Shown here piece after piece: positions 2,502-52,872 of a stretch of 64,000 nucleotides of DNA; within the stretch, counting starts at the first letter, position 1, and every line of letters begins with the position of its first letter. Position numbers and translations under genes: made by a program. The notes under the pieces were generated by a model. It was not told the origin of the DNA. It was given only the letters and a program-made list of their open reading frames with translations, and did no database searches. This stretch comes from Gemmatimonadota bacterium (GTDB lineage Bacteria; Gemmatimonadota; Gemmatimonadetes; Gemmatimonadales; GWC2-71-9), in NCBI GenBank assembly GCA_003222155.1, contig QHUU01000054.1, positions 65,612-129,611 of the forward strand, written 5' to 3'.

Positions 2502-3354
2502 CGGCCCTGGTGCGGGTGAAGCGCCGGGTGGAGACGCCGTACAAGTCCAGCGCGTCGATCCGGTCGGCGTCACCGGGCGCCGTGGCCACGATGCCGCCGA
2601 GGTCCTGCGATCCAAGCGAGACCCCCAAGGCGAGTCCGGCGCGCCTGAGCGCGCGGTCGGTGTCGAGGCGGACGAGCAGTCCCACGGGGGCACGCGTCGT
2701 TGCCCCGAGGCCGGACCGCAGGCCGAATGCATAACCGAGCACGCCCCCCGACGTGAACCGGCCGTCGGCCGAGACCGCCGCGCGCGCATCGAACAGGCGC
2801 AGCGTCGCGCTCGGCACGTAGGTGACGGGGAGCGTGGTGCCCCGCACACTGGGGCGCCCGACGTTCTCGATCACTCCGCCCAGGGACAGCGACGGCCTCC
2901 AGTCGTACAGGATCCCCAGGTCCCAGCCGCTGCTCGACGTACCGCCGCGGTACAGCGCAGTGGCGAACCCGGCCGCGAGTCCCGCGCGTCCTACGGCGTA
3001 GCCGATGCGATACGTGTGGCCCCGCGCCCCGGCGTCGAACACATCGCGCTGATAGCCGAACGACAACCCGCGTGAGCTCAGTCCGAGCGTGAGCTGTCGC
3101 AGCCGGCCGGCCGCTCCGGGCTCCCCCACCGTGAGGTCGAGATGGAGCGAGGCCTCCTCGAAGCGCCCGGACCCGGCGGGGTTCACCCACAGCGCGCGCG
3201 CATCGGTCACGTCGCTCGGATACAGGTAGAGCGCGGCCCGATTCGGCACCACTTGCGCCCCGACGATGGCGGGAACCACGAGCTGCAGCAGCGACAGTCC
3301 GACCATCCGCCGGCGATCGCGGCGGAGCCCTGTGAGGTCCGCCGGGCCGCCCAC
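2491..3354 (-). CDS. Hypothetical outer-membrane beta-barrel-like protein
   Basis: Signal-like N-terminus MVGLSLLQLVVPAIVGAQ. Alternating Gly/aromatic beta-strand pattern and an NPAGSG motif. The GTG start overlaps the upstream TAG by 1 nt; an alternative ATG is at 3306. Confidence 0.55.
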   Translation of the reverse strand: MGGPADLTGLRRDRRRMVGLSLLQLVVPAIVGAQVVPNRAALYLYPSDVTDARALWVNPAGSGRFEEASLHLDLTVGEPGAAGRLRQLTLGLSSRGLSFGYQRDVFDAGARGHTYRIGYAVGRAGLAAGFATALYRGGTSSSGWDLGILYDWRPSLSLGGVIENVGRPSVRGTTLPVTYVPSATLRLFDARAAVSADGRFTSGGVLGYAFGLRSGLGATTRAPVGLLVRLDTDRALRRAGLALGVSLGSQDLGGIVATAPGDADRIDALDLYGVSTRRFTRTRAVRD

Positions 3355-4235
3355 TACGGCAGCACCGAGACCGCGGTCTGGGCGACCTGGATCACGGGCA
3401 CCGAGACTCCCTGCACCGGCAGGCGGATGGTGAGGGCCGTCGAATCACGCACCTCGCCGGCCAGGTAGCGGCCGTCGGCGGCGAGGAAGGCGCTCCCGGT
3501 GGCAGTCCCGTCGCCGGACAGCTCGTAGGGCTGGCCCGCGTTCTTTCCACTCCCCGTGACGTGGTAGGTCTGGCTGGTCTCCACGCGCAGACCGGACACG
3601 CCCGCGCGCTCCCACGGCGTCGCCGTCGCGTGTATGGTCGCGCGCCGGGAGCTCGTGGCGTCGCTGCCCTTTTGCGTGGTCTCCACCGTGTCCGTCCACG
3701 CCGCGCCAGGCTTGATCCCGTCCGCCGGGAGACGCGGCAGGAAATCCCGGAAGTTGCCGAGCAGTTGGGCTACGGATTGGGCGAGCGCACTGTCGGACGG
3801 CACGACGTTCACGAACTCACCGCGCCGCGCCACGCGACCCGCGAACACCAGCTTCCGCACCTTGACGATGTTGTCCGCGATGGGCGCGGGCGTGCCGGAG
3901 TCGGCCACGATCGAATCGATGCTGAAGGTCGTCGGGTACCCGACGCTGTCCGCGGGGCCGGTGATCGCCATGGTGACGAAGATCCGGGCGCCGAGGCTCT
4001 GCGCTTGCACCTGGTCGCCCAAGGTCTGCCGGATGTGCAGCTGCCGATGGAGCAGATACCGGAGCGCGCCCGGCCCGTAGCGCACGCTCGCGAGCGCAGC
4101 GCCGGGCGGCGGCGATGGGGGCGTCGTGGGGGGCTGGGCCGGCGCCGCAGGCGGTGTGGCCGCCACCGTTCCGGCCCGGCCCGAGGCGCAACCGCCGACG
4201 AGCGCGATGACCACGAGCAACAGCCGGGGCGTCAT
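3354..4235 (-). CDS. Hypothetical lipoprotein
   Basis: Lipobox MTPRLLLVVIALVGGC followed by a Pro-rich linker. GC3-rich frame. ATGA overlap with the upstream small ORF. Confidence 0.6.
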   Translation of the reverse strand: MTPRLLLVVIALVGGCASGRAGTVAATPPAAPAQPPTTPPSPPPGAALASVRYGPGALRYLLHRQLHIRQTLGDQVQAQSLGARIFVTMAITGPADSVGYPTTFSIDSIVADSGTPAPIADNIVKVRKLVFAGRVARRGEFVNVVPSDSALAQSVAQLLGNFRDFLPRLPADGIKPGAAWTDTVETTQKGSDATSSRRATIHATATPWERAGVSGLRVETSQTYHVTGSGKNAGQPYELSGDGTATGSAFLAADGRYLAGEVRDSTALTIRLPVQGVSVPVIQVAQTAVSVLP

Positions 4236-4441: not shown

Positions 4442-4448
4442 AGGGAGG

Positions 4449-4820
4449 AGGGCGGTAGGGCCATAAGCCGAGTTCTGTTTGCCCGCCGTAGCGGGGCAGA
4501 TGGTCATCTCTCTGGGGCGGCTGTCGCCAGCCACCTCACGCGGCCTACCCGCAGCTCAAGCGACCCGGGCCGGGTCTGGCTGCTTACTTGGCCTTGCTCC
4601 GACTGGGGGTTACCGTGCCACGCCTGTTGCCAGGCGCGCGGTGGGCTCTTACCCCACCGTTTCACCCTTACCCTTGGATAAAGGGCGGTCTGTTCTCTGT
4701 GGCCCTTTCCGTCGCCTCGCGGCGCCCAGGAGTTACCTGGCAGTCTGCCCTGTGGAGCTCGGACTTTCCTCGGCACGCCACTCCAGCCGGCATGCCGCGA
4801 CCATCACGCCCTACCGCCAC
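4449..4820 (-). ncRNA. rnpB: RNase P RNA, bacterial type A
   Basis: The minus strand contains GAGGAAAGTCCGAGCTCCACAGGGCAG, ACAGAGAACAGACCGCC, GGTAAGGGTGAAACGGTGGGGTAAGAGCCCACCGCGCG, GGAGCAAGGCCAAGTAAGC and ACAGAACTCGGCTTATGG. P1 pairs GGCGGTAGGGC (5') with GCCCTACCGCC (3'). Ends are approximate, +/-5 nt. Confidence 0.93.
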
Positions 4821-40799: not shown

Positions 40800-42244
<1,445 letters not shown>

Positions 42245-42293
42245 GGGAATTTAGACGGCCCAACACGGCTACGCCACGGATCGAGCCCCGAGT

Positions 42294-42324
42294 CCCGAAC
42301 CCCGAACCCCGAACCCCGAACCCC
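42294..42324. repeat. Tandem heptamer repeat (CCCCGAA)n, which is (GGGGTTC)n on the def/thiC strand
   Basis: CCCGAA CCCCGAA CCCCGAA CCCCGAA CCCC read directly. Another CCCC run lies at 42286-42289. Confidence 0.9.
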
Positions 42325-42326
42325 GC

Positions 42327-42956: not shown

Positions 42957-43015
42957 TCCGTTCGTCCCGGTACCTCTCTGCAACTTGCGACGCGCAAAGG
43001 ACTTCGGGAGTGTCT

Positions 43016-44452
43016 ATGAGTAGCGGCATCGAAGCCCAGGTCCTCCAGCCCTACAAGTACGGCTTCGTCACCGACATCGAGTCGGAGACCGTCCCCCCCG
43101 GCTTGAGCGAGGACGTTATCCGGCTCATCTCGCAGAAGAAGGGCGAGCCGGCCTGGATGCTCGAGTGGCGGCTCAAGGCGTATCGCAACTGGCAGAAGAT
43201 GCCGGAGCCGCACTGGGCCAACGTGCAGTACGGCCCGGTCGACTATCAGGCCATCAGCTATTACGCCGCCCCCAAGCAGCGGCCCAAGCTGGATAGCCTC
43301 GATCAGGTCGATCCCAAGCTGCTCGAGACGTTCGAGAAGCTCGGCATTCCGCTCGAGGAGCGGAAGCGACTGGCCGGCGTCGCGGTGGACGCGGTGTTCG
43401 ATTCGGTATCCGTGGCGACCACGTTCCGCGAGGAGCTCAAAAAGCACGGCGTGATCTTCTGCGCGATCTCGGAAGCGATCCGGGAGTATCCCGACCTGGT
43501 GCAGCAGTATCTGGGATCCGTCGTCCCATACAACGACAACTTCTTCGCCGCGCTCAATTCGGCGGTGTTCACGGACGGCTCGTTCGTGTATGTGCCGAAG
43601 GGTGTGCGCTGCCCGATGGAACTGTCCACCTACTTCCGTATCAACGCGGAGTCGACCGGTCAGTTCGAGCGTACGCTGATCGTCGCGGACGAGGGGAGCC
43701 ACGTGAGCTATCTGGAGGGCTGCTCGGCTCCGGTGCGCGACGAGAACCAGTTGCACGCGGCCGTCGTGGAGCTGGTGGCGCTCGACAACGCGACGATCAA
43801 GTACTCCACGATTCAGAACTGGTACCCCGGCGACGAAGAGGGGCGGGGCGGGATCTACAACTTCGTGACCAAGCGCGGCGCCTGCCGCGGCCGGGCCTCC
43901 AAGATCTCGTGGACCCAGGTGGAGACCGGCTCCGCGATCACCTGGAAGTATCCCGGCTGCATCCTGCAGGGCGACGATTCGATCGGCGAGTTCTACTCCG
44001 TGGCCGTGACCAACCAGCGGCAGCAGGCGGACACGGGCACCAAGATGATCCACATGGGCAAGAACACGCGCTCGACTATCGTGTCGAAGGGGATCTCGGC
44101 GGGCCGCGGCCAGAACACCTACCGCGGGCTCGTGAAGATCCTCAAGGGCGCGGAGCAGGCCCGCAACTACTCGCAGTGCGACTCGATGCTGATCGGGGAC
44201 CGGTGCGGTGCGCACACGTTTCCCTACATCGACGTGCGCAACAGCACCGCCATTATGGAGCACGAGGCCTCGACGTCCAAGATCGGCGAGGACCAGATCT
44301 TCTACGCCAAGCAGCGCGGTCTCTCCGCCGAAGACGCCGTGTCGATGATCGTGAACGGCTTCTGCAAGGAAGTCTTCAAGGAGCTCCCGATGGAGTTCGC
44401 GGTCGAAGCGCAGCGGCTGCTCGGGATCAGCCTCGAAGGGAGTGTGGGATGA
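43016..44452 (+). CDS. sufB: Fe-S cluster assembly scaffold protein SufB
   Basis: Full-length SufB-like sequence ([10 protein letters not shown]..., [11 protein letters not shown]..., [12 protein letters not shown]). GGGAG upstream. An alternative GTG is at 43010. Confidence 0.95.
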
Positions 44453-45240
44453 CGGGAAAGGGGAAACGGGAAACGGGAAAGGTGTTGCTCGAGGTCCGCG
44501 ACCTCCACGCATCGGTCGAGGGTCGCGAGATCCTCAAGGGCGTCGACTTGACGGTCCGGACCGGCGAGGTGCACGCGATCATGGGGCCGAACGGCTCGGG
44601 GAAGAGCACCCTGGCCCAGGTGCTCGCCGGCCATCCGGCGTACTCGGTCACCGCCGGACAGGTGCTGTACGAGGGGAAGGACCTGCTCGCCATGGCCCCG
44701 GAGGAGCGGGCCCGCGAGGGCGTGTTCCTGGCGTTCCAGTATCCGGTCGCGATCCGCGGCATCACCAACGCGTATTTCCTGCGGGCGGCGGTGAACGCGA
44801 TCCGCAAGCACAAAGGCGTCGAGGAGCTCGGGCCCGTGGAATTCATGGACGCGCTCGAAGCGAAGCTCACGGCGATCGGTTGGGACTCGAGCTACTTGAC
44901 CCGACCCGTGAACGACGGCTTTTCGGGTGGCGAGAAGAAGCGCAACGAGATCCTGCAGCTCGCGGTCCTCGATCCCAAGCTCGCGATCCTCGACGAGACC
45001 GATTCGGGTCTCGACATCGACGCCTTGAAGACCGTGGCGCAGACGGTCGACAAGCTGCGCCGACCCGACAACGCCACGGTTCTCGTGACGCATTACTACC
45101 GGATCCTCACGCATATCCAGCCCGACCTGGTGCATGTGCTGGCGGCGGGCCGGATCGTGAAGTCGGGCGGGAAGGATCTGGCGCTCGAGCTGGAAGAGAA
45201 GGGGTACGACTGGCTCCGTACGGAACCGGCGGTGGCGTGA
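44449..45240 (+). CDS. sufC: Fe-S cluster assembly ATPase SufC
   Basis: [34 protein letters not shown]. The ATG overlaps the sufB TGA. An in-frame GTG at 44482 is an alternative start. Confidence 0.93.
44454..44482 (+). repeat. Tandem heptamer-like repeat GGGAAAG GGGAAAC GGGAAAC GGGAAAGG at the sufB/sufC junction
   Basis: Read directly from the sequence. It encodes [10 protein letters not shown] if ATG 44449 is the start. Confidence 0.85.
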
Positions 45241-46550
45241 ACGTCACCGACCGCTACGTCGCCGACTTCAAAGCGTTCGTGGGGAACGGCGCGGCCGGCG
45301 CCCCCCCGTGGCTCAAACAGATCCGCGAGGGCGCGATCGCCCGCTTCGCGGAGCTGGGCTTCCCCACCACGAAGCAGGAGGAGTGGCGCTTCACCAGCGT
45401 CGCGCCGATCGTGGACACGCGGTTTTCGCATCCCGCCTCCCGCATCCCGCACCCCGGGCTCACCGAGATCGGGTCGTTGCTCATCGGGCCCGGGCCCCGC
45501 GTCGTCCTGGTCGACGGGCGCTACGCGCCGGAGTTGTCGTCGGCCGCCGACCAGCGGAGCGGTGTCCGGGTAGGCAGCCTCGCGTCCGCGGTCGCGGACG
45601 GCCCCAGTAGCGAGCTCGCTCGCGAGCATCTGGCGCGCCACGCGCGCTGGCACGACAGCGCCTTTGCGGCGCTCAACACGGCGTTCCTCGCGGACGGCGC
45701 GTTCGTGCACGTGCCCGCCGGCGTCACGCTCGAGCAGCCGCTCGAGCTGCTGTTCCTCTCGAGCGGCCGGCCCGGCGCCGACGGCCCGACCGTGTCACAT
45801 CCCCGCAGCCTCGTCGTGATCGAGCGGGGCGCGGAAGCCGCGGTGCTCGAGACGTACGCCGGGCTCGGGGACGGTGTGTACTGGAGCAACGCGGTCACCG
45901 AGATCGTGGTGGGCGAAGGCGCGCGGGTCGAGCTGTACCGGGTGCAGCGGGAGGGCCCACGCGGCCTCCAGGTCGCAACGACACATTCGCGACAGGAACG
46001 CGACAGCCTTCTGGGAGTGCACGTCCTGACGCTCGGCGCCGCGCTGGCGCGCCACGACATCACCGCGGTCCTGGGCGGCGCCGGCGCAGAGCTCATTCTC
46101 AACGGGTTGTACCTGTTGCGCGCCGGCCAGCACGCCGACCACCACACGGTGATCGACCATGCCCAGCCGCACTGCGCCAGTCACGAGTATTTCAACGGCG
46201 TGCTGGCCGAGCGGGCGCACGGGGTGTTCAACGGGCGGATCATCGTGCGGCCGGGGGCGCAGCGGACCGATTCGAAGCAGACCAACAACAACCTGCTGCT
46301 CTCGACCGAAGCCCGCGCCGACAGTCAGCCGCAGCTCGAGATCTACGCGGACGACGTGAAGTGTACCCACGGCTCCACGGTGGGGCCGATCGACCAGAAC
46401 CAGTTGTACTATCTCCGCAGCCGCGGGTTGTCCGCCCAGGCGGCCCGCAGCATCCTCACGTACGGATTCGGCGCCGAGATCCTGGACCGCATGCGGCGCC
46501 CGGCGGTGCGGGAGCGGCTCGACCGGCTGGTGCGGGAGCGCCTCGCGTGA
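45237..46550 (+). CDS. sufD: Fe-S cluster assembly protein SufD
   Basis: SufD-like beta-helix region (SRQERDS..., GVFNGRIIVRPGAQRTDSKQTNNNLLLS, DDVKCTHGSTVG). GTGA overlap with sufC. Confidence 0.9.
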   Translation: MNVTDRYVADFKAFVGNGAAGAPPWLKQIREGAIARFAELGFPTTKQEEWRFTSVAPIVDTRFSHPASRIPHPGLTEIGSLLIGPGPRVVLVDGRYAPELSSAADQRSGVRVGSLASAVADGPSSELAREHLARHARWHDSAFAALNTAFLADGAFVHVPAGVTLEQPLELLFLSSGRPGADGPTVSHPRSLVVIERGAEAAVLETYAGLGDGVYWSNAVTEIVVGEGARVELYRVQREGPRGLQVATTHSRQERDSLLGVHVLTLGAALARHDITAVLGGAGAELILNGLYLLRAGQHADHHTVIDHAQPHCASHEYFNGVLAERAHGVFNGRIIVRPGAQRTDSKQTNNNLLLSTEARADSQPQLEIYADDVKCTHGSTVGPIDQNQLYYLRSRGLSAQAARSILTYGFGAEILDRMRRPAVRERLDRLVRERLA

Positions 46551-48227: not shown

Positions 48228-49202
48228 ATGATGTCCCCTGCCCCCGCCCCTTCCCCGACCCCGATCCTGGTGCTCGACCGCGTCCGCAAAACGTTCGCGG
48301 GCCACATCGCGGTCGACGATCTGTCGCTCGCCGTGCCCCCGGGGGTGATCTACGGGCTGCTCGGTCCCAACGGGGCCGGCAAGACGACCACCATCCGCAT
48401 GATCATGGACATCCTCCAGCCCGATGCGGGTTCGGTGCGCCTGTTCGGCGCGCCGGCCGGAGACCGGATGTACGCCGAGCGGATCGGCTACCTCCCCGAG
48501 GAGCGCGGCCTGTACCGCAAGATGCGCGTGCTCGACGTGCTGGTGTTCCTCGGCGAGATGAGGGGGATGGAGCGGCGGCGCGCGCGCCAACGCGCCGGCG
48601 AATGGCTCGAGCGGCTCGGCCTGGCGCAGTGGCGCCTGCGTCGCATCGACGAGCTGTCGAAGGGGATGCAGCAGAAGGTGCAGTTCATCTCCACCATCCT
48701 GCACGAGCCCGCGCTCGTGGTACTGGACGAGGCGTTCGCCGGCCTCGATCCGGTCAACGCCCAGGTGATGAAGGACACGGTCCTCGAACTGCGCGCTCGC
48801 GGCGCCACCATCCTGTTCTCGACCCACATCATGGAACAGGCCGAAAAGCTGTGCGAGCACGTGTGTATCATCGCGCGCGGGCGGAAGCTGGTGGACGGCC
48901 CGCTGGGCGACATCAAGCGGACCCGCGGCGGACACCATCTCGTCGTCGGGTTCGATGGCAGCGTCGGGGCGGCGGCACAGGTCTTTGCCGACGCAGCGCT
49001 CGTGAAAAAGGTGGATGACTACGGTCAGTACGCCGAGGTCGAGCTCGCCCCCGGGGCCGACCCGCAGCGCGTGCTGCGCGACCTGGTCGGATCGGGGGCG
49101 AGGCTGGCGCGCTTCGAGCTGCGCGAGCCTTCGCTCCTGAAGATTTTCATCGACCTCGTAGGCCCGGAGGCGGCGCAGGCCGGCGTGCGACCCGATGCAT
49201 AA
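48228..49202 (+). CDS. ABC transporter ATP-binding protein (ABC-2 type)
   Basis: GPNGAGKTTT, LSKGMQQK, VVLDEAFAGLD. Confidence 0.92.
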   Translation: MMSPAPAPSPTPILVLDRVRKTFAGHIAVDDLSLAVPPGVIYGLLGPNGAGKTTTIRMIMDILQPDAGSVRLFGAPAGDRMYAERIGYLPEERGLYRKMRVLDVLVFLGEMRGMERRRARQRAGEWLERLGLAQWRLRRIDELSKGMQQKVQFISTILHEPALVVLDEAFAGLDPVNAQVMKDTVLELRARGATILFSTHIMEQAEKLCEHVCIIARGRKLVDGPLGDIKRTRGGHHLVVGFDGSVGAAAQVFADAALVKKVDDYGQYAEVELAPGADPQRVLRDLVGSGARLARFELREPSLLKIFIDLVGPEAAQAGVRPDA

Positions 49203-50448
49203 GATCTGGGCGATCGTTCGGCGCGAATTCGTGGAGCGGGTGCGGACCCGGTGGTTCTGGATCGGAGCGCTGCTCGGCCCCGTGCTGTTCGGTGCCGTCT
49301 TCTTCCTCTCCGGACAGCTGGGGCGCGGCGGCGGACTGAAGCGGATCGCGATCGTCGACGGCACGACGACACAGCTGGGTGCCCGCATCGCCGAGCAGCT
49401 CGGCCGGAGCGGGGACTGGGCGATCCGCGTGCCCGCGGCCATCGGCGTCGTGGACTCACTGACTGCCCAGGTTCGGGCCAAGCAGCTCGACGGCTTCTTG
49501 ATCGTCACCGACGCCGCGCTCGACTCCGGCAAAGTCGAGTACCGCGGGTCCAACGTCTTTGCAGGTAAAGGGGCCCTGCAGCGCCCCGTCGGCGAGGCCC
49601 TGACGGTGGTCCGCCTGCAGCGGGCCGGCGTGGATCCCCGGCTTGTGGCCCGCGCGAGCATCCCGCTGCGTCTCGAGACGTGCAAGATCTCGCGTGGCAC
49701 GACGTGCGGCGAGAGCGCGGCGCAGTCGTTCTCCCTCGCCTACTTCATGGGGATCATCCTCTACACGGCGATCCTCTTGTACGGCATCAACGTCATGAGC
49801 TCCGTGCTCGAGGAGAAGACGACCCGCATCGTGGAGGTGCTGGTATCGTCGCTGCGCCCCTTCCAGCTGCTGCTCGGCAAGGTGCTCGGGGTCGGGGCGG
49901 TGTCCATTTTCCAGTTCCTCATCTGGGGAGTGGCGGGCCGCCTGCTGCTGGCGCGCCGGGCGCCCCTCGCGGGGGGGGGCGATGCGGGAGGGGCGGGGGC
50001 GGACGAGCTGTTCCAGGTGCCACACGTGACGGGCGCGACGTTCGCGGTCTTCATGGCGTATTTCCTGGGTGGTTTCTTTCTGTACTCCGCCATGTTCGCG
50101 GCGGTCGGCGCCATGTCGTCCACCGAGCAGGAGGCGCGCCAGGCGCAGCAGCCGGTGGCGTGGATGCTCGTGCTGTCGTTCATCAGCATGTTCGCCATGC
50201 TGAACGACCCGGGCTCGACCGTGGCCGTGACGCTCTCGCTCATCCCGTTCAGCTCACCCGTCGCGATGCCGGTCCGGTGGGCCGCCGGCAGCCTGCCGGC
50301 GTCCGAGCTGGCGCTCTCGTTGGCGATCCTGGTGGCGACGATCGGGGGGGTGACATGGATCGCGGCGCGGATCTATCGGGTGGGGATTCTGATGACGGGG
50401 AAGCGGCCGAACCTGAAAGAACTGGTGCGCTGGATCCGAACGGCATGA
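49195..50448 (+). CDS. ABC-2 type transporter permease
   Basis: N-terminal TM, a large loop, then about 5 TM segments. Overlaps the ATPase gene by 8 nt. Confidence 0.82.
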   Translation: MHKIWAIVRREFVERVRTRWFWIGALLGPVLFGAVFFLSGQLGRGGGLKRIAIVDGTTTQLGARIAEQLGRSGDWAIRVPAAIGVVDSLTAQVRAKQLDGFLIVTDAALDSGKVEYRGSNVFAGKGALQRPVGEALTVVRLQRAGVDPRLVARASIPLRLETCKISRGTTCGESAAQSFSLAYFMGIILYTAILLYGINVMSSVLEEKTTRIVEVLVSSLRPFQLLLGKVLGVGAVSIFQFLIWGVAGRLLLARRAPLAGGGDAGGAGADELFQVPHVTGATFAVFMAYFLGGFFLYSAMFAAVGAMSSTEQEARQAQQPVAWMLVLSFISMFAMLNDPGSTVAVTLSLIPFSSPVAMPVRWAAGSLPASELALSLAILVATIGGVTWIAARIYRVGILMTGKRPNLKELVRWIRTA

Positions 50449-50458
50449 ACGACCAAGC

Positions 50459-50487
50459 AGACGCCGAGACGCCTAGACGCCCAGCGG
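50459..50487. repeat. Left arm of the 29-nt inverted repeat (AGACGCC-N tandem octamers plus CAGCGG)
   Basis: AGACGCCGAGACGCCTAGACGCCCAGCGG, starting 10 nt after the permease stop. Confidence 0.9.
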
Positions 50488-50576
50488 CGGTGAGCGTACA
50501 GCGAGAGGCATAGGAAAGCTTCGACCTGCGTGGTTTCGGTGCGGTACCTCCGCCTCAGGTTTCGTAGGTTGGCTCC

Positions 50577-50960
50577 GTGGCTCCCTACCGAACCCTCAAG
50601 GCCTGGCAACACGCCCAACGGCTCGCCGTCGAGTGCGCGAAAGCCGCGCTTCGATTCCCGGACTACGAGCAGAACAGTCTTGCGGATCAGCTCCGCAGAG
50701 CGGCGTACGGCGTCGTCCTGAACATCGCCGAGGGCAGCGCGCGGCGCGGAACGAGGGAGTACCGTCGTTTCCTTGACACGGCAAATGCGTCGCTCGCCGA
50801 GGTGGAAACCGCGCTCGGGCTCGCTCGAGAGCTCGGGTACCTCGAGCCGGCCGAGTTCGGACGGTTGGAAGCCGTCGCGACGGAGACGGGCAAGACGCTG
50901 TTCGGGCTGTTGCGGAAGATCAGCGCGAGCGCAGCGAAATCCCTCCCACCTGGTCGCTAG
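50577..50960 (+). CDS. Four-helix-bundle protein (23S rRNA intervening-sequence protein family; Avd-like fold)
   Basis: YRTLKAWQHAQRLAVE...QLRRAAYGVVLNIAEGSARRGTREYRRFLDTANASLAEVETAL matches the PF05635/TIGR02436 pattern. GTG start. Confidence 0.88.
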   Translation: MAPYRTLKAWQHAQRLAVECAKAALRFPDYEQNSLADQLRRAAYGVVLNIAEGSARRGTREYRRFLDTANASLAEVETALGLARELGYLEPAEFGRLEAVATETGKTLFGLLRKISASAAKSLPPGR

Positions 50961-50963
50961 AAC

Positions 50964-50992
50964 CCGCTGGGCGTCTGGGCGTCTAGGCGTCT
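50964..50992. repeat. Right arm of the 29-nt inverted repeat
   Basis: CCGCTGGGCGTCTGGGCGTCTAGGCGTCT. Its reverse complement matches the left arm at 27/29 positions. It starts 3 nt after the ORF stop and ends 11 nt before the mnmG ATG. Confidence 0.9.
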
Positions 50993-51003
50993 ATTATTGT
51001 CGC

Positions 51004-52872
51004 ATGTCCTTCGACTACGACGTGATCGTGGTGGGCGCCGGCCACGCCGGCTGCGAGGCTGCCGTCTTGTCCGCCCGCCTCGGCGCCAAGACGCTCCTCC
51101 TCACCTCCAACCTCGACACGATCGGCCAGATGTCCTGCAATCCCGCCATCGGCGGAATCGCCAAGGGCACCGTGGCGCGGGAGACCGACGCGCTTGGTGG
51201 CATCATGGGGCGGGCCACCGATCGTGCGACCATTCAGTTCCGGATGCTCAATCGCTCCAAGGGACCGGCCGTGTGGGCGCCGCGCGCCCAGTGCGATCGC
51301 ACGCTGTACCGCCGCGCCGTGCGCGCATTGCTCGAAGGCGTTCCGACGCTCGAGCTCGTGCAGGGGATGGTCAGCGGACTGCTGTTGGACGGCGCGCGGG
51401 CGTCCGGAGTGCGCACCGCCGACGGGCGCAGCATTCGCGCCCGCGCCGTGGTGCTGACGGCCGGGACCTTCCTGCGCGGACGCATTCACCTCGGCACCGA
51501 CACGCAGATCCCCGCTGGTCGAGCAGGCGATCAGCCCGCCGTTGCTATCGCGGAACACATTGAATCACTTGGACTTACAGCGTTGCGCTTCAAGACCGGG
51601 ACGCCGCCGCGCGTCGACGGCCGGAGCGTCGACTGGTCCAAGGTCGAGCGCCAAGACGGCGACGGGGACGAATACCGCTTCTCCTCTTACGAGCGCGCGG
51701 TGTTGCCGCGCCAGGTGCCGTGCTGGATCACGTGGGCGGGCGAGGAAGTGAAGGCGATCATCCGCGCTCACCTGGCGGAGTCGGCCTTGTACGGGGGCGC
51801 CATCAGCGGCCGCGGGCCGCGGTACTGCCCGTCGGTCGAGGACAAGATCGTCAAGTTCCCCGACGCCAAGCGGCACCAGGTGTTCCTGGAGCCCGAAGGT
51901 CTCGACACCCATGAGTTGTATGTGAACGGGTTGTCCACTTCCCTGCCCGTGCCGGTGCAGCTCGAGTTTCTCCGGGCCGTCCCGGGGCTCGAGCGGGCGC
52001 ACATGACCCGCCCGGGCTACGCCATCGAGTACGACTATTATCCGCCCACTCAGCTCACCCCCTGGCTCGAGACGAAGGCGGTGGAGCAGCTGTTTTTCGC
52101 CGGGCAGATCAATGGTACGACTGGGTACGAGGAGGCCGCCGGCCAGGGTGTGGTGGCGGGAATCAATGCTGTGCGTCGGCTGCGCGGGCAGGAGCCGGTG
52201 CTGTTCGCGCGTGACACCGCGTACATCGGCGTACTGGTCGACGATCTGGTGACTCGAGGCGTCGACGAGCCGTACCGGCTGTTCACCTCCCGCTCCGAGT
52301 TCCGGCTGCTGCTGCGGCAGGACAACGCGCTGCGCCGGCTCGCACCCCTGGCGGAGCGGCTCGGTCTCTTGACCGCGGCGGAGCTGCGCACCGCGGAACG
52401 GCGGCGGGCGGAAGAAGACGGCGTGGTCGCCGCCGCCCGCGCCACGACGATCGCGCCGGCGGCGGCTGCTCCCGTGCTCCTCCCCACGGGGACGACGCTG
52501 GCGGAGCCCGAGCGAGTGGCGAGCGTCGCGCGCCGGCCGGGTGCGTCGCTGCGCGCGCTGCTCGCAGCGGCGGGCGTGACGGTGACGGCGGACGCGGACG
52601 CCGTCGCCAGCGCCGAGATCGAGCTCAAGTACGACGGCTATCTCGCGCGTGAGAGGGAAGCAGCGGCGCGGCTGGCCGAGCTCGCCGCATTCGCGCTGCC
52701 TCTGGAGCTTCCTTATCTCGAGCTCAAGAGTCTGGCGACCGAGGCGCGACAGAAGCTCGATCGGATCCGCCCGACGTCGCTGGCGCAGGCAGCGCGCATC
52801 CCCGGCGTCTCGCCCAGCGACCTGCACAATCTCGTGGTCGAGACGGCGCGCTGGCGCCGGCGCGTGGCCTAG
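51004..52872 (+). CDS. mnmG: tRNA uridine-5-carboxymethylaminomethyl synthesis enzyme MnmG (GidA)
   Basis: YDVIVVGAGHAGCEAA, GQMSCNPAIGGIAKG, full-length similarity. Confidence 0.97.
   Translation: MSFDYDVIVVGAGHAGCEAAVLSARLGAKTLLLTSNLDTIGQMSCNPAIGGIAKGTVARETDALGGIMGRATDRATIQFRMLNRSKGPAVWAPRAQCDRTLYRRAVRALLEGVPTLELVQGMVSGLLLDGARASGVRTADGRSIRARAVVLTAGTFLRGRIHLGTDTQIPAGRAGDQPAVAIAEHIESLGLTALRFKTGTPPRVDGRSVDWSKVERQDGDGDEYRFSSYERAVLPRQVPCWITWAGEEVKAIIRAHLAESALYGGAISGRGPRYCPSVEDKIVKFPDAKRHQVFLEPEGLDTHELYVNGLSTSLPVPVQLEFLRAVPGLERAHMTRPGYAIEYDYYPPTQLTPWLETKAVEQLFFAGQINGTTGYEEAAGQGVVAGINAVRRLRGQEPVLFARDTAYIGVLVDDLVTRGVDEPYRLFTSRSEFRLLLRQDNALRRLAPLAERLGLLTAAELRTAERRRAEEDGVVAAARATTIAPAAAAPVLLPTGTTLAEPERVASVARRPGASLRALLAAAGVTVTADADAVASAEIELKYDGYLAREREAAARLAELAAFALPLELPYLELKSLATEARQKLDRIRPTSLAQAARIPGVSPSDLHNLVVETARWRRRVA

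Follow-up and report, generated by a model that had tools for sequence, protein, structure and literature searches.

The window analysed here is a stretch of 64,000 nucleotides (nt) from a Gemmatimonadota bacterium (contig QHUU01000054.1 of assembly GCA_003222155.1, positions 65,612 to 129,611), and our subject is the 555-nt spacer that lies within it between an ABC-2 family permease gene and mnmG. This spacer is probably one copy of a widespread compact cassette, which comprises a gene of the PF05635 family, a structured leader of ~90 nt, and inverted arrays of 7-8-nt units that form its ends. Across phyla, the bracket of inverted arrays is a hallmark of the PF05635 members sampled. Between near-identical Gemmatimonadales genomes, the cassette has been flipped and swapped as one block, the endpoints lying at its arms or a short way beyond them. 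The features of the locus, in window coordinates, are as follows.

49195-50448, plus strand: upstream flank, ABC-2 family permease gene (Pfam match, PF12698).
50459-50487: left (permease-proximal) arm, AGACGCC-G-AGACGCC-T-AGACGCC-CAGCGG, that is, three AGACGCC+N octamers followed by AGCGG.
50488-50576, plus strand: leader inside the loop, with a conserved GCATAGG (50508-50514) followed by a small hairpin (~50515-50551), both from orthologue alignments.
50577-50960, plus strand: gene for a four-helix-bundle protein (PF05635/TIGR02436; S23p/Avd-like) of 127 amino acids (aa), with a GTG start.
50964-50992: right (mnmG-proximal) arm, CCGCTG-GGCGTCT-G-GGCGTCT-A-GGCGTCT, that is, CCGCT followed by three N+GGCGTCT octamers.
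51004-52872, plus strand: downstream flank, mnmG (gidA; Pfam match, PF01134), followed by parA and parB.

The two arms, each of 29 nt and 476 nt apart, are complementary at 27/29 positions (93%), and the two mismatches are one G·A and one U·G. The left arm lies 10 nt beyond the permease stop codon (which ends at 50448), the stop of the enclosed open reading frame (ORF) is 3 nt from the right arm, and 11 nt separate the right arm from the mnmG ATG at 51004. Arms and enclosed gene together fill the entire spacer. An earlier reading of the DNA letters, made without database searches (the sequence-only reading), had given the coordinates and sequences of the arms, their complementarity and the spacings, and we reproduced all of them. 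The pattern AGACGCCNAGACGCC has four exact matches in the window, all within the two arms, and seven matches when up to two mismatches are allowed, against 1.64 expected; 0/100 shuffles reached seven. Similarly, Smith-Waterman alignment of the upstream flank to the reverse complement of the downstream flank gave z = 12.9 against shuffles. A chance or low-complexity artefact is ruled out by these shuffles, and by conservation in more than 100 loci.

In the predicted minimum free energy structure of the RNA from 50440-51010, a check that the sequence-only reading had proposed, a long stem between the arms closes the whole unit (z = -3.85). No match to a ribosomal RNA (rRNA) gene was found in the window at Rfam gathering thresholds, and the arms enclose an S23p/PF05635 ORF, in agreement with the earlier proposal that the locus has the architecture of an rRNA intervening sequence (IVS) outside any rRNA gene. 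For the arms and leader, Rfam returned no match at E up to 1 in 50300-51200, and identity with a known RNA family was rejected. In a scan for sigma-70 promoters and intrinsic terminators, nothing resembled a promoter, and the single terminator-like match, a weak one within the right arm, is uninformative.

The assignment of the enclosed protein to PF05635 and TIGR02436, likewise first made from the sequence alone, holds well above the cut-offs of both models. The PF05635 match (E 8.4e-28; score 97.1 bits, cut-off 33.8) covers residues 6-109 and a model of 106 positions, and PF05635 is the sole Pfam family matched; the TIGR02436 match scores 91 bits against a cut-off of 24. The nearest solved relative is 2GSC, Xanthomonas XCC0516 (E 1.6e-16, residues 2-91). 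A second PF05635 gene within the 64-kilobase (kb) window was not found by tblastn. The anti-phage defence models of PADLOC gave 0 families at E up to 0.01, and a known defence protein was rejected on this ground.

The hairpin part of the leader probably functions as RNA, because RNAalifold on 17 orthologues identified compensatory double changes in 10/13 pairs. The outer helix is imperfect in the window copy. In many orthologues the hairpin has a GC-rich stem followed by TTTC, which gives it a terminator-like look.

We investigated the distribution of the bracket beyond this locus. No function has been assigned to PF05635/TIGR02436, although the family is very large: a search of 1.84 billion representative proteins identified 12,395 clusters at 50% identity related to the ORF. 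A genome scan of one genome per species, based on an alignment of 12 diverse members, yielded 80 loci, which are the best matches to one peptide pattern and thus a sample of a PF05635 subfamily, not of the whole family. Three of these are Gemmatimonadota orthologues, and the other 77 span Acidobacteriota, Planctomycetota, Chloroflexota, Verrucomicrobiota, Proteobacteria, Firmicutes, Bacteroidota, Nitrospirota, the candidate phyla radiation and others. For each gene, 260 nt of upstream sequence were aligned to the reverse complement of 160 nt downstream, with other genes of the same loci as controls. A bracket score of at least 28 was reached by 63/72 diverse PF05635 genes against 10/290 other genes, and a score of at least 35 by 46/72 against 2/290 (Mann-Whitney p = 7e-34 for the two score distributions). 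The bracketing of other PF05635 genes, which the sequence-only reading had named as its own test, is therefore borne out.

At nearly all the sampled loci there is a significant inverted repeat whose arms are tandem arrays of short units. The sequence of the unit is lineage-specific and covaries between the two arms, as in the following examples.

Arm unit AGCCACGA, locus L020.
Arm unit AGAGGTC, locus L021.
Arm unit CAGTTCT, locus L025.
Arm unit TAGGGAC, locus L030.
Arm unit ATCGTGA, locus L049.
Arm unit AGGCTGT, 13 copies, locus L055.
Arm unit GGATCGT, 11-17 copies, locus L071.
Arm unit GTGACTG, locus L077.

Among the arrays adjacent to the genes, 71 have a period of 7 nt and seven a period of 8 nt, with a median of 4.4 and a maximum of 20.7 copies. 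The tandem octamers described in the sequence-only reading are thus correct for the window locus and a minority form in the family as a whole. Arms have a median length of 32 nt (range 16-108), with a median of 44 nt from the end of the 5' arm to the start codon and of 10 nt from the stop codon to the start of the 3' arm. On the sense strand, the 5' arm is richer in G than in C in 45/63 cassettes (L009-L085; mean GC skew +0.26, p = 2.6e-4), and the AGACGCC unit of the window has the opposite polarity to this majority. Cassettes with the same unit have a mean protein identity of 64.6%, against ~48%. Of the other tandem arrays within 3 kb, 13/41 have the arm unit, against 1.3 expected, and 28/41 do not match it; the host genome's repeat repertoire therefore includes the arm unit. 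An rRNA location was rejected for this wider sample, with 0/77 loci in an rRNA gene.

Some of the sampled loci show further arrays or unusual surroundings. In other phyla, the vicinity of PF05635 cassettes includes gene-less pairs of inverted heptamer or octamer arrays with loops of ~17-290 nt (L012:979-1218, L071:1525-1638, L046:3717-3805, L044:1818-2165), which are analogous to a gene-less hairpin in the window that is described below. In Candidatus Laterigemmans baculatus (L085, 988-3947), two PF05635 genes (2070-2411 and 3001-3366) are interleaved with 11 tRNA genes on the opposite strand, and a 15-copy TGAAGGG array follows at 3966-4072. At L031, the Acido-Lenti-1 RNA motif (RF01687) occurs twice (476-521 and 1688-1733) less than 3 kb from the PF05635 cassette, the surroundings of which hold several GAGTACT heptamer arrays.

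Within the Gemmatimonadales, eight loci were obtained through protein look-ups and the genome scan, 80 from metagenomes, and 20, which carry two mnmG alleles only, were selected via mnmG. Soil Gemmatimonadales are rich in close homologues of the protein, with identities of 74-99%. A PF05635 gene lies upstream of mnmG in all of the ~110 loci, with a permease gene usually, and nifU sometimes, on its other side; both synteny and arms are kept in L001-L008. In this order the cassette thus permanently occupies the junction that precedes mnmG, and a recent insertion was rejected, as every relative examined has a cassette there. The left arm is conserved in orthologues of the AGACGCC type (type C), and that of L004 is identical to the window's.

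The occupant itself changes. We identified at least three types of cassette, with the units AGACGCC, AGACGG(C/G) and AGACGCA. In 60 of the 64 loci with types found on both sides, the innermost unit type agrees between the two arms (arm-type pairs C-C 20, G-G 11, A-A 29, off-diagonal 4). By comparison between genomes, 78/89 loci have the orientation of the window and 11/89 are inverted relative to the permease-to-mnmG direction; in L153 and L160, for example, cassettes of one type (92.6% aa identity) face opposite ways beside mnmG fragments that are 97% identical. Protein identity shows almost no correlation with mnmG identity (Spearman 0.13), being as low as 69% in pairs with mnmG at least 95% identical and up to 99% in pairs with mnmG 70-80% identical.

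The clearest exchange is between L103 and L161, the flanks of which are 99.6% identical over 1356 nt on the left and 97.9% identical over 679 nt on the right, whereas the intervening ~650 nt are of a different type, inverted and 68% identical. A base-by-base reading puts the loss of identity 15-20 nt beyond the arms. The final 4-5 permease codons switch with the cassette, the last four encoding the same residues by different codons, and the first ~5 mnmG codons also switch. Between L139 and L111, the break falls within ~17 nt of the left arm, and the right arm is common to both. Other loci hold composite ends. L087 and L088 have compound arms, with AGACGG arrays outside and AGACGCC arrays inside; L161 has an orphan AGACGCC array, with the window's ATTATTG(A/T)CGC-ATG junction, beside mnmG, next to a complete inverted cassette of the AGACGCA type; and L174, L177 and L178, with identical mnmG, differ in the number of array blocks. 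As for the earlier suggestion of a self-contained insertion cassette, exchange and inversion as a unit with endpoints at the arms support the self-contained part; the insertion is not a recent one, with no empty site in ~110 loci. We additionally noted that L187 (~1500-2200) is a mosaic, the left half identical to the window and the right half matching L184, with the crossover inside the gene.

At 50993-51006 in the window, the mnmG start and the right arm are separated only by the AT-rich 11-mer ATTATTGTCGC, and no Shine-Dalgarno-like sequence is recognisable between them. The right-arm array may also be part of the mnmG 5' region, because junction and array persist in L161 despite the replaced cassette.

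The enclosed ORF is intact in 83/89 orthologous loci. Measured against the window copy, dN/dS comes to 0.04-0.18 and synonymous sites are almost saturated (pS, the proportion of synonymous differences, 0.6-0.8), and the protein is under strong purifying selection. In L186 (~1784-2134), a one-base insertion splits the PF05635 frame, as a pseudogene or a sequencing error.

A different account of these loci, which we consider unlikely, is that of a vertically inherited host gene, the inverted repeat being a regulatory or insulating structure of the host (a terminator, RNA-processing site or mRNA stabiliser, for instance), and the diversity, mosaics and inversions the outcome of normal homologous recombination between strains and between arms, with no mechanism peculiar to a cassette. 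The position fixed across the order, with no empty site, and the strong purifying selection on the ORF fit such a gene, as does a conserved gene-less hairpin (loop included) in the window, at the convergent dnaN/mtgA junction, where a bidirectional terminator would be expected. Against this account, a bracket with differing units recurs in many phyla and unrelated contexts and only rarely around neighbouring genes, and, in two near-isogenic pairs, the breakpoints fall less than ~20 nt from the arms despite more than 1 kb of flank that is 95-99.6% identical. Recombination of the usual kind is favoured by the crossover inside the gene of L187, and by exchanged tracts that extend a few codons into both flanking genes; against this stand near-identical cassettes in backgrounds with mnmG only 70-80% identical. 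In rRNA genes, moreover, members of the family occur sporadically, as insertions gained by horizontal transfer (PMC4990558, PMC11270868). As L187 and the swapped flank codons show, at least some of the exchange is due to ordinary homologous recombination through conserved flanking sequence, which is the main rival explanation to a cassette delimited by its arms.

Near the start of the window we identified a second, gene-less hairpin with related octamers, which the sequence-only reading does not mention.

200-316: solo hairpin, with the dnaN stop (179-181) on one side and, on the other, the 3' end of a convergent mtgA-like gene; fold z = -5.4.

Its arms (215-242 and 283-310) are of 28 nt each and enclose a loop of 40 nt with no gene inside. 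Each arm holds two AGACGCAC octamers plus AGCGG-type inner segments. Positions 200-243 are 91% identical over 44 nt to the upstream arm of L134, and 283-313 are 97% identical over 32 nt to the downstream arm of L160 and L162, all three being AGACGCA-type cassettes. Both matches cover the non-repeat inner and outer segments, and the hairpin thus retains the non-repeat end segments of that type. It is, to judge by these matches, an AGACGCA-type cassette minus its gene. Its position is conserved in L166-L173: hairpin and loop alike occur at the dnaN/mtgA junction of 7/7 relatives fetched with mtgA proteins 78-87% identical to the window's, with a different repeat copy number in L168. None of the seven relatives has a full, gene-bearing cassette at this junction; they have the gene-less hairpin only. 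The solo hairpin is thus old and positionally stable, and no fresh insertion. The mtgA-like ORF (PF00912; minus strand, 254-1405) reads through the right arm (254-316), and therefore its last ~20 codons are repeat-derived. The relatives share this overlap, and the called length of their mtgA protein ranges from 256 to 308 aa.

A gene-less derivative with both ends intact brings to mind an autonomous transposon-like element, in which the four-helix-bundle protein would be a mobility factor, the arms its reiterated binding sites (terminal inverted repeats), and the gene-less hairpins non-autonomous, MITE-like derivatives (MITE, miniature inverted-repeat transposable element). In its favour, the terminal inverted repeats are specific to PF05635 genes, the solo hairpin has both ends of a cassette type that is intact in sister strains, the arm unit recurs in other nearby arrays, and the sites of cassettes include rRNA and a tRNA array. 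In Xanthomonas campestris, Rehm et al. (2015) reported 186 GGGAATC heptamer arrays with 70 convergent pairs, and repeat #15 of their supplementary table lies between bccP (XCC0517) and XCC0516, the crystallised family member, overlapping the start of XCC0516 (PMC4692102). We nevertheless hold this interpretation to be distinctly unlikely. It is weakened because no target-site duplication was seen, because a catalytic domain is lacking and no nuclease or recombinase fold is known for the helical bundle of 127 aa, because no empty sites were seen, and because the hairpins are old: cassette and solo hairpin hold their positions across a clade with saturated synonymous sites. There is also no second copy of the gene in the 64 kb.

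The arms are themselves conserved. Between the window and L004, they differ at 1/58 positions, across evolutionary distances that nearly saturate the synonymous sites of the gene. The three cassette types have the core AGACG in common, with unit positions 6-8 varying, and the cassettes of Acidobacteriota likewise combine a constant CAGT with three variable positions. From these alignments we conclude that the arm core (AGACG) is conserved as sequence, beyond what pairing would entail.

We therefore return to the compact cassette as our preferred explanation. It would be the same type of element that is known, within 23S rRNA, as the ORF-containing IVS. The arms would be the functional DNA boundaries of the module, acting as recombination substrates through which its interior is flipped or swapped. 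Since the two arms repeat a single array in inverted form, exchange through them could fix an incoming cassette in either orientation, and could leave hybrid or orphan arrays; both outcomes are observed. The conserved core of the unit may be recognised sequence-specifically, most plausibly by the cassette's own protein, the solved homologue of which (2GSC) is a homopentamer (PMC4990558). In a read-through transcript the arms could pair as a 29-bp stem, which by analogy with rRNA IVSs would be a substrate of RNase III, and cutting would excise the cassette RNA from host transcripts. RNase III excises ORF-containing IVSs at a 28-bp terminal stem (PMC4990558).

Several points weigh against this explanation. 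Concerning the cassette as a moving unit, no empty site was found at the junction in the ~110 loci, including 20/20 selected via mnmG; multi-copy dispersal in this genome was not seen within the available 64 kb; and the solo hairpin is old and fixed in place, and any mobility must therefore be slow. No target-site duplication around the cassette or the solo hairpin was found by eye on reading the sequence. Among the neighbours within ~4 kb at the syntenic locus L001 (cysteine desulfurase, NifU, ABC ATPase, ABC-2 permease, MnmG, ParA, ParB and M23 peptidase), we saw no recombinase, transposase or reverse transcriptase, and the earlier statement that no reverse transcriptase, integrase or transposase lies nearby stands. 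Given the crossover in L187 and the swapped flank codons, ordinary homologous recombination could explain part of the exchange. The comparison loci are mostly metagenome contigs, for any single pair of which chimeric assembly is possible, a caveat eased by arms of ~30-60 nt, which we estimate to be shorter than typical short reads, and by the recurrence of the pattern across many samples. The bracket, as stated above, was counted in a subfamily sample. The binding of the repeats by the cassette's protein is putative. The RNA stem is weakened on two counts: copy number is frequently unequal between the two arms, and the arm mismatches comprise 55 that are G·U-compatible on the sense strand, 76 of A·C type and 156 transversions. 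With no excess of G·U, selection on sense-RNA pairing alone is therefore unsupported, and selection on RNA pairing only was not adopted as the main explanation (55 against 76, no bias).

Conservation of the unit also raises the alternative that the protein is a trans-acting binder of tandem arrays, in DNA or RNA, that regulates array-bearing genes and uses its own arms as autoregulatory operators. This we think very unlikely, as it leaves unexplained both the always-inverted arrays that flank a whole gene and the exchange and inversion of the cassette as a block. A binder of this kind would fit the kept core with a varying spacer (AGACG+NNN here, CAGT+NNN in Acidobacteriota), the lack of G·U bias in the arm mismatches, and the typical copy number of 4-5 beside a homopentameric solved homologue (PMC4990558). 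Single direct arrays occur in 5' regions of the window (42282-42325 and 44452-44480), as reported for TAACTGA arrays (PMC4679880). Against it, 28/41 nearby arrays in the same genomes have a different unit. Sequence-specific binding of nucleic acid is, moreover, not known for Avd.

We compared the cassette with known systems. Its nearest known entity is the ORF-containing 23S rRNA IVS, although the window locus is without the rRNA location that defines such sequences. The IVSs of Leptospira, Coxiella and Brucella (helix 45) hold the same protein family, S23p/PF05635, in a stem loop, with terminal inverted repeats of ~28 bp and a comparable compactness of ~430-760 nt (PMC4990558), and terminal inverted repeats that form a long enclosing stem are shared with the window cassette. 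The cassette differs from these in lying between protein-coding operons and not in 23S helix 9, 25 or 45, and in undergoing exchange and inversion at one fixed site. Short units in tandem make up its arms, a feature not described for IVSs in the text of PMC4990558. Its ORF is strongly purified by selection, whereas the Coxiella IVS ORF is reported to be decaying and untranslated (PMC4990558).

PF05635 is also the Pfam family that resembles Avd (PMC10053308), the accessory protein of diversity-generating retroelements (DGRs). The window ORF belongs to the same fold family, but reaches only 21.7 bits (E 1.9e-4) with the Avd equivalog model NF033474, which has a cut-off of 80. A reverse transcriptase was not seen within ~4 kb (L001); template and variable repeats were not searched for. 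A DGR component was rejected, with the Avd model below cut-off and no reverse transcriptase nearby.

Repetitive extragenic palindromes (REPs), their REPIN doublets and the associated RAYT transposases (REP-associated tyrosine transposases) offer a likeness of organisation, with inverted copies of a short repeat on both sides of a gene, dispersal of that repeat through the genome, which for the cassette is putative, hairpin doublets without a gene at other places, and long vertical residence in place of active hopping. The window protein, in contrast, is no Y1 HUH transposase but a four-helix bundle of 127 aa, and its repeats are tandem 7-8-mers, not single palindromes, with one extra hairpin in the 64-kb window. 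Tandem heptamer repeats, such as the cyanobacterial STRR (short tandemly repeated repetitive) sequences, Xanthomonas GGGAATC and Beggiatoaceae TAACTGA, have a period of 7, intergenic location, variable copy number and frequent convergent pairs, whereas the window unit is an octamer and its arrays bracket a gene. The PF05635 family is mentioned in neither the GGGAATC (PMC4692102) nor the TAACTGA (PMC4679880) study. As in invertons and shufflons, a segment bounded by inverted repeats occurs in both orientations among close relatives; unlike these, no site-specific invertase was seen among the neighbouring genes, and the segment is a whole gene with its leader, not a promoter. Transposons with terminal inverted repeats and MITEs share such repeats with the cassette, but neither a target-site duplication nor a transposase was seen here, and there is no presence/absence polymorphism of the cassette at mnmG or of the solo hairpin (7 loci).

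The sequence-only reading had called the arrangement uncharacterised, and we found no publication that describes it. Nor did we find literature linking PF05635 to tandem-repeat inverted arms, to heptamer families or to exchange and inversion as a block, in a search that left most subscription journals outside. The PF05635 domain was still called functionally uncharacterised in 2024 (PMC11270868).

The window contains other short arrays and one other structured RNA. An array of ~6 copies of CGAACCC (42282-42325) lies between an ORF stop (42327) and a thiamine pyrophosphate (TPP) riboswitch (42139-42247, minus strand). The little space left behind the stop (44452) of a 480-aa ORF (43010-44452), which looks sufB-like from the gene order, is taken up by ~4 copies of ACGGGAA (44452-44480), and ~4 copies of CGCATCC (45427-45456) are apparently within the following coding region. 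All three arrays are single and unpaired, with units unlike those of the cassette arms. An ordinary bacterial RNase P RNA of class A (4448-4817, minus strand, 299 bits) is unrelated to the cassette.

The value of the finding lies in the family-wide pattern, which gives PF05635 a genomic signature that can be checked, namely a lineage-specific 7-8-mer repeated in tandem within inverted arrays. This signature ties together three hitherto unexplained observations, the ORF-bearing rRNA IVSs, the orphan relatives of Avd, and the tandem heptamers that abound in cyanobacteria, xanthomonads, Acidobacteriota and other phyla. It is possible, although we lean against it for now, that PF05635 cassettes are a distinct and unrecognised class of element, in which a pentamer would read 7-8-nt arrays, the arrays would serve as ends for exchange, inversion and occasional insertion, including into rRNA, and dispersed heptamer arrays (STRR, GGGAATC) would be their products, relics or targets. 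The mnmG junction amounts to a natural experiment, with several cassette types in both orientations at one chromosomal site in a single species-level population, and with recombination endpoints that can be mapped. The old question of IVS mobility, for which Ralph and McClelland in 1993 reportedly proposed a mobile-element origin of rRNA intervening sequences, and of the role of the IVS ORF becomes directly testable.

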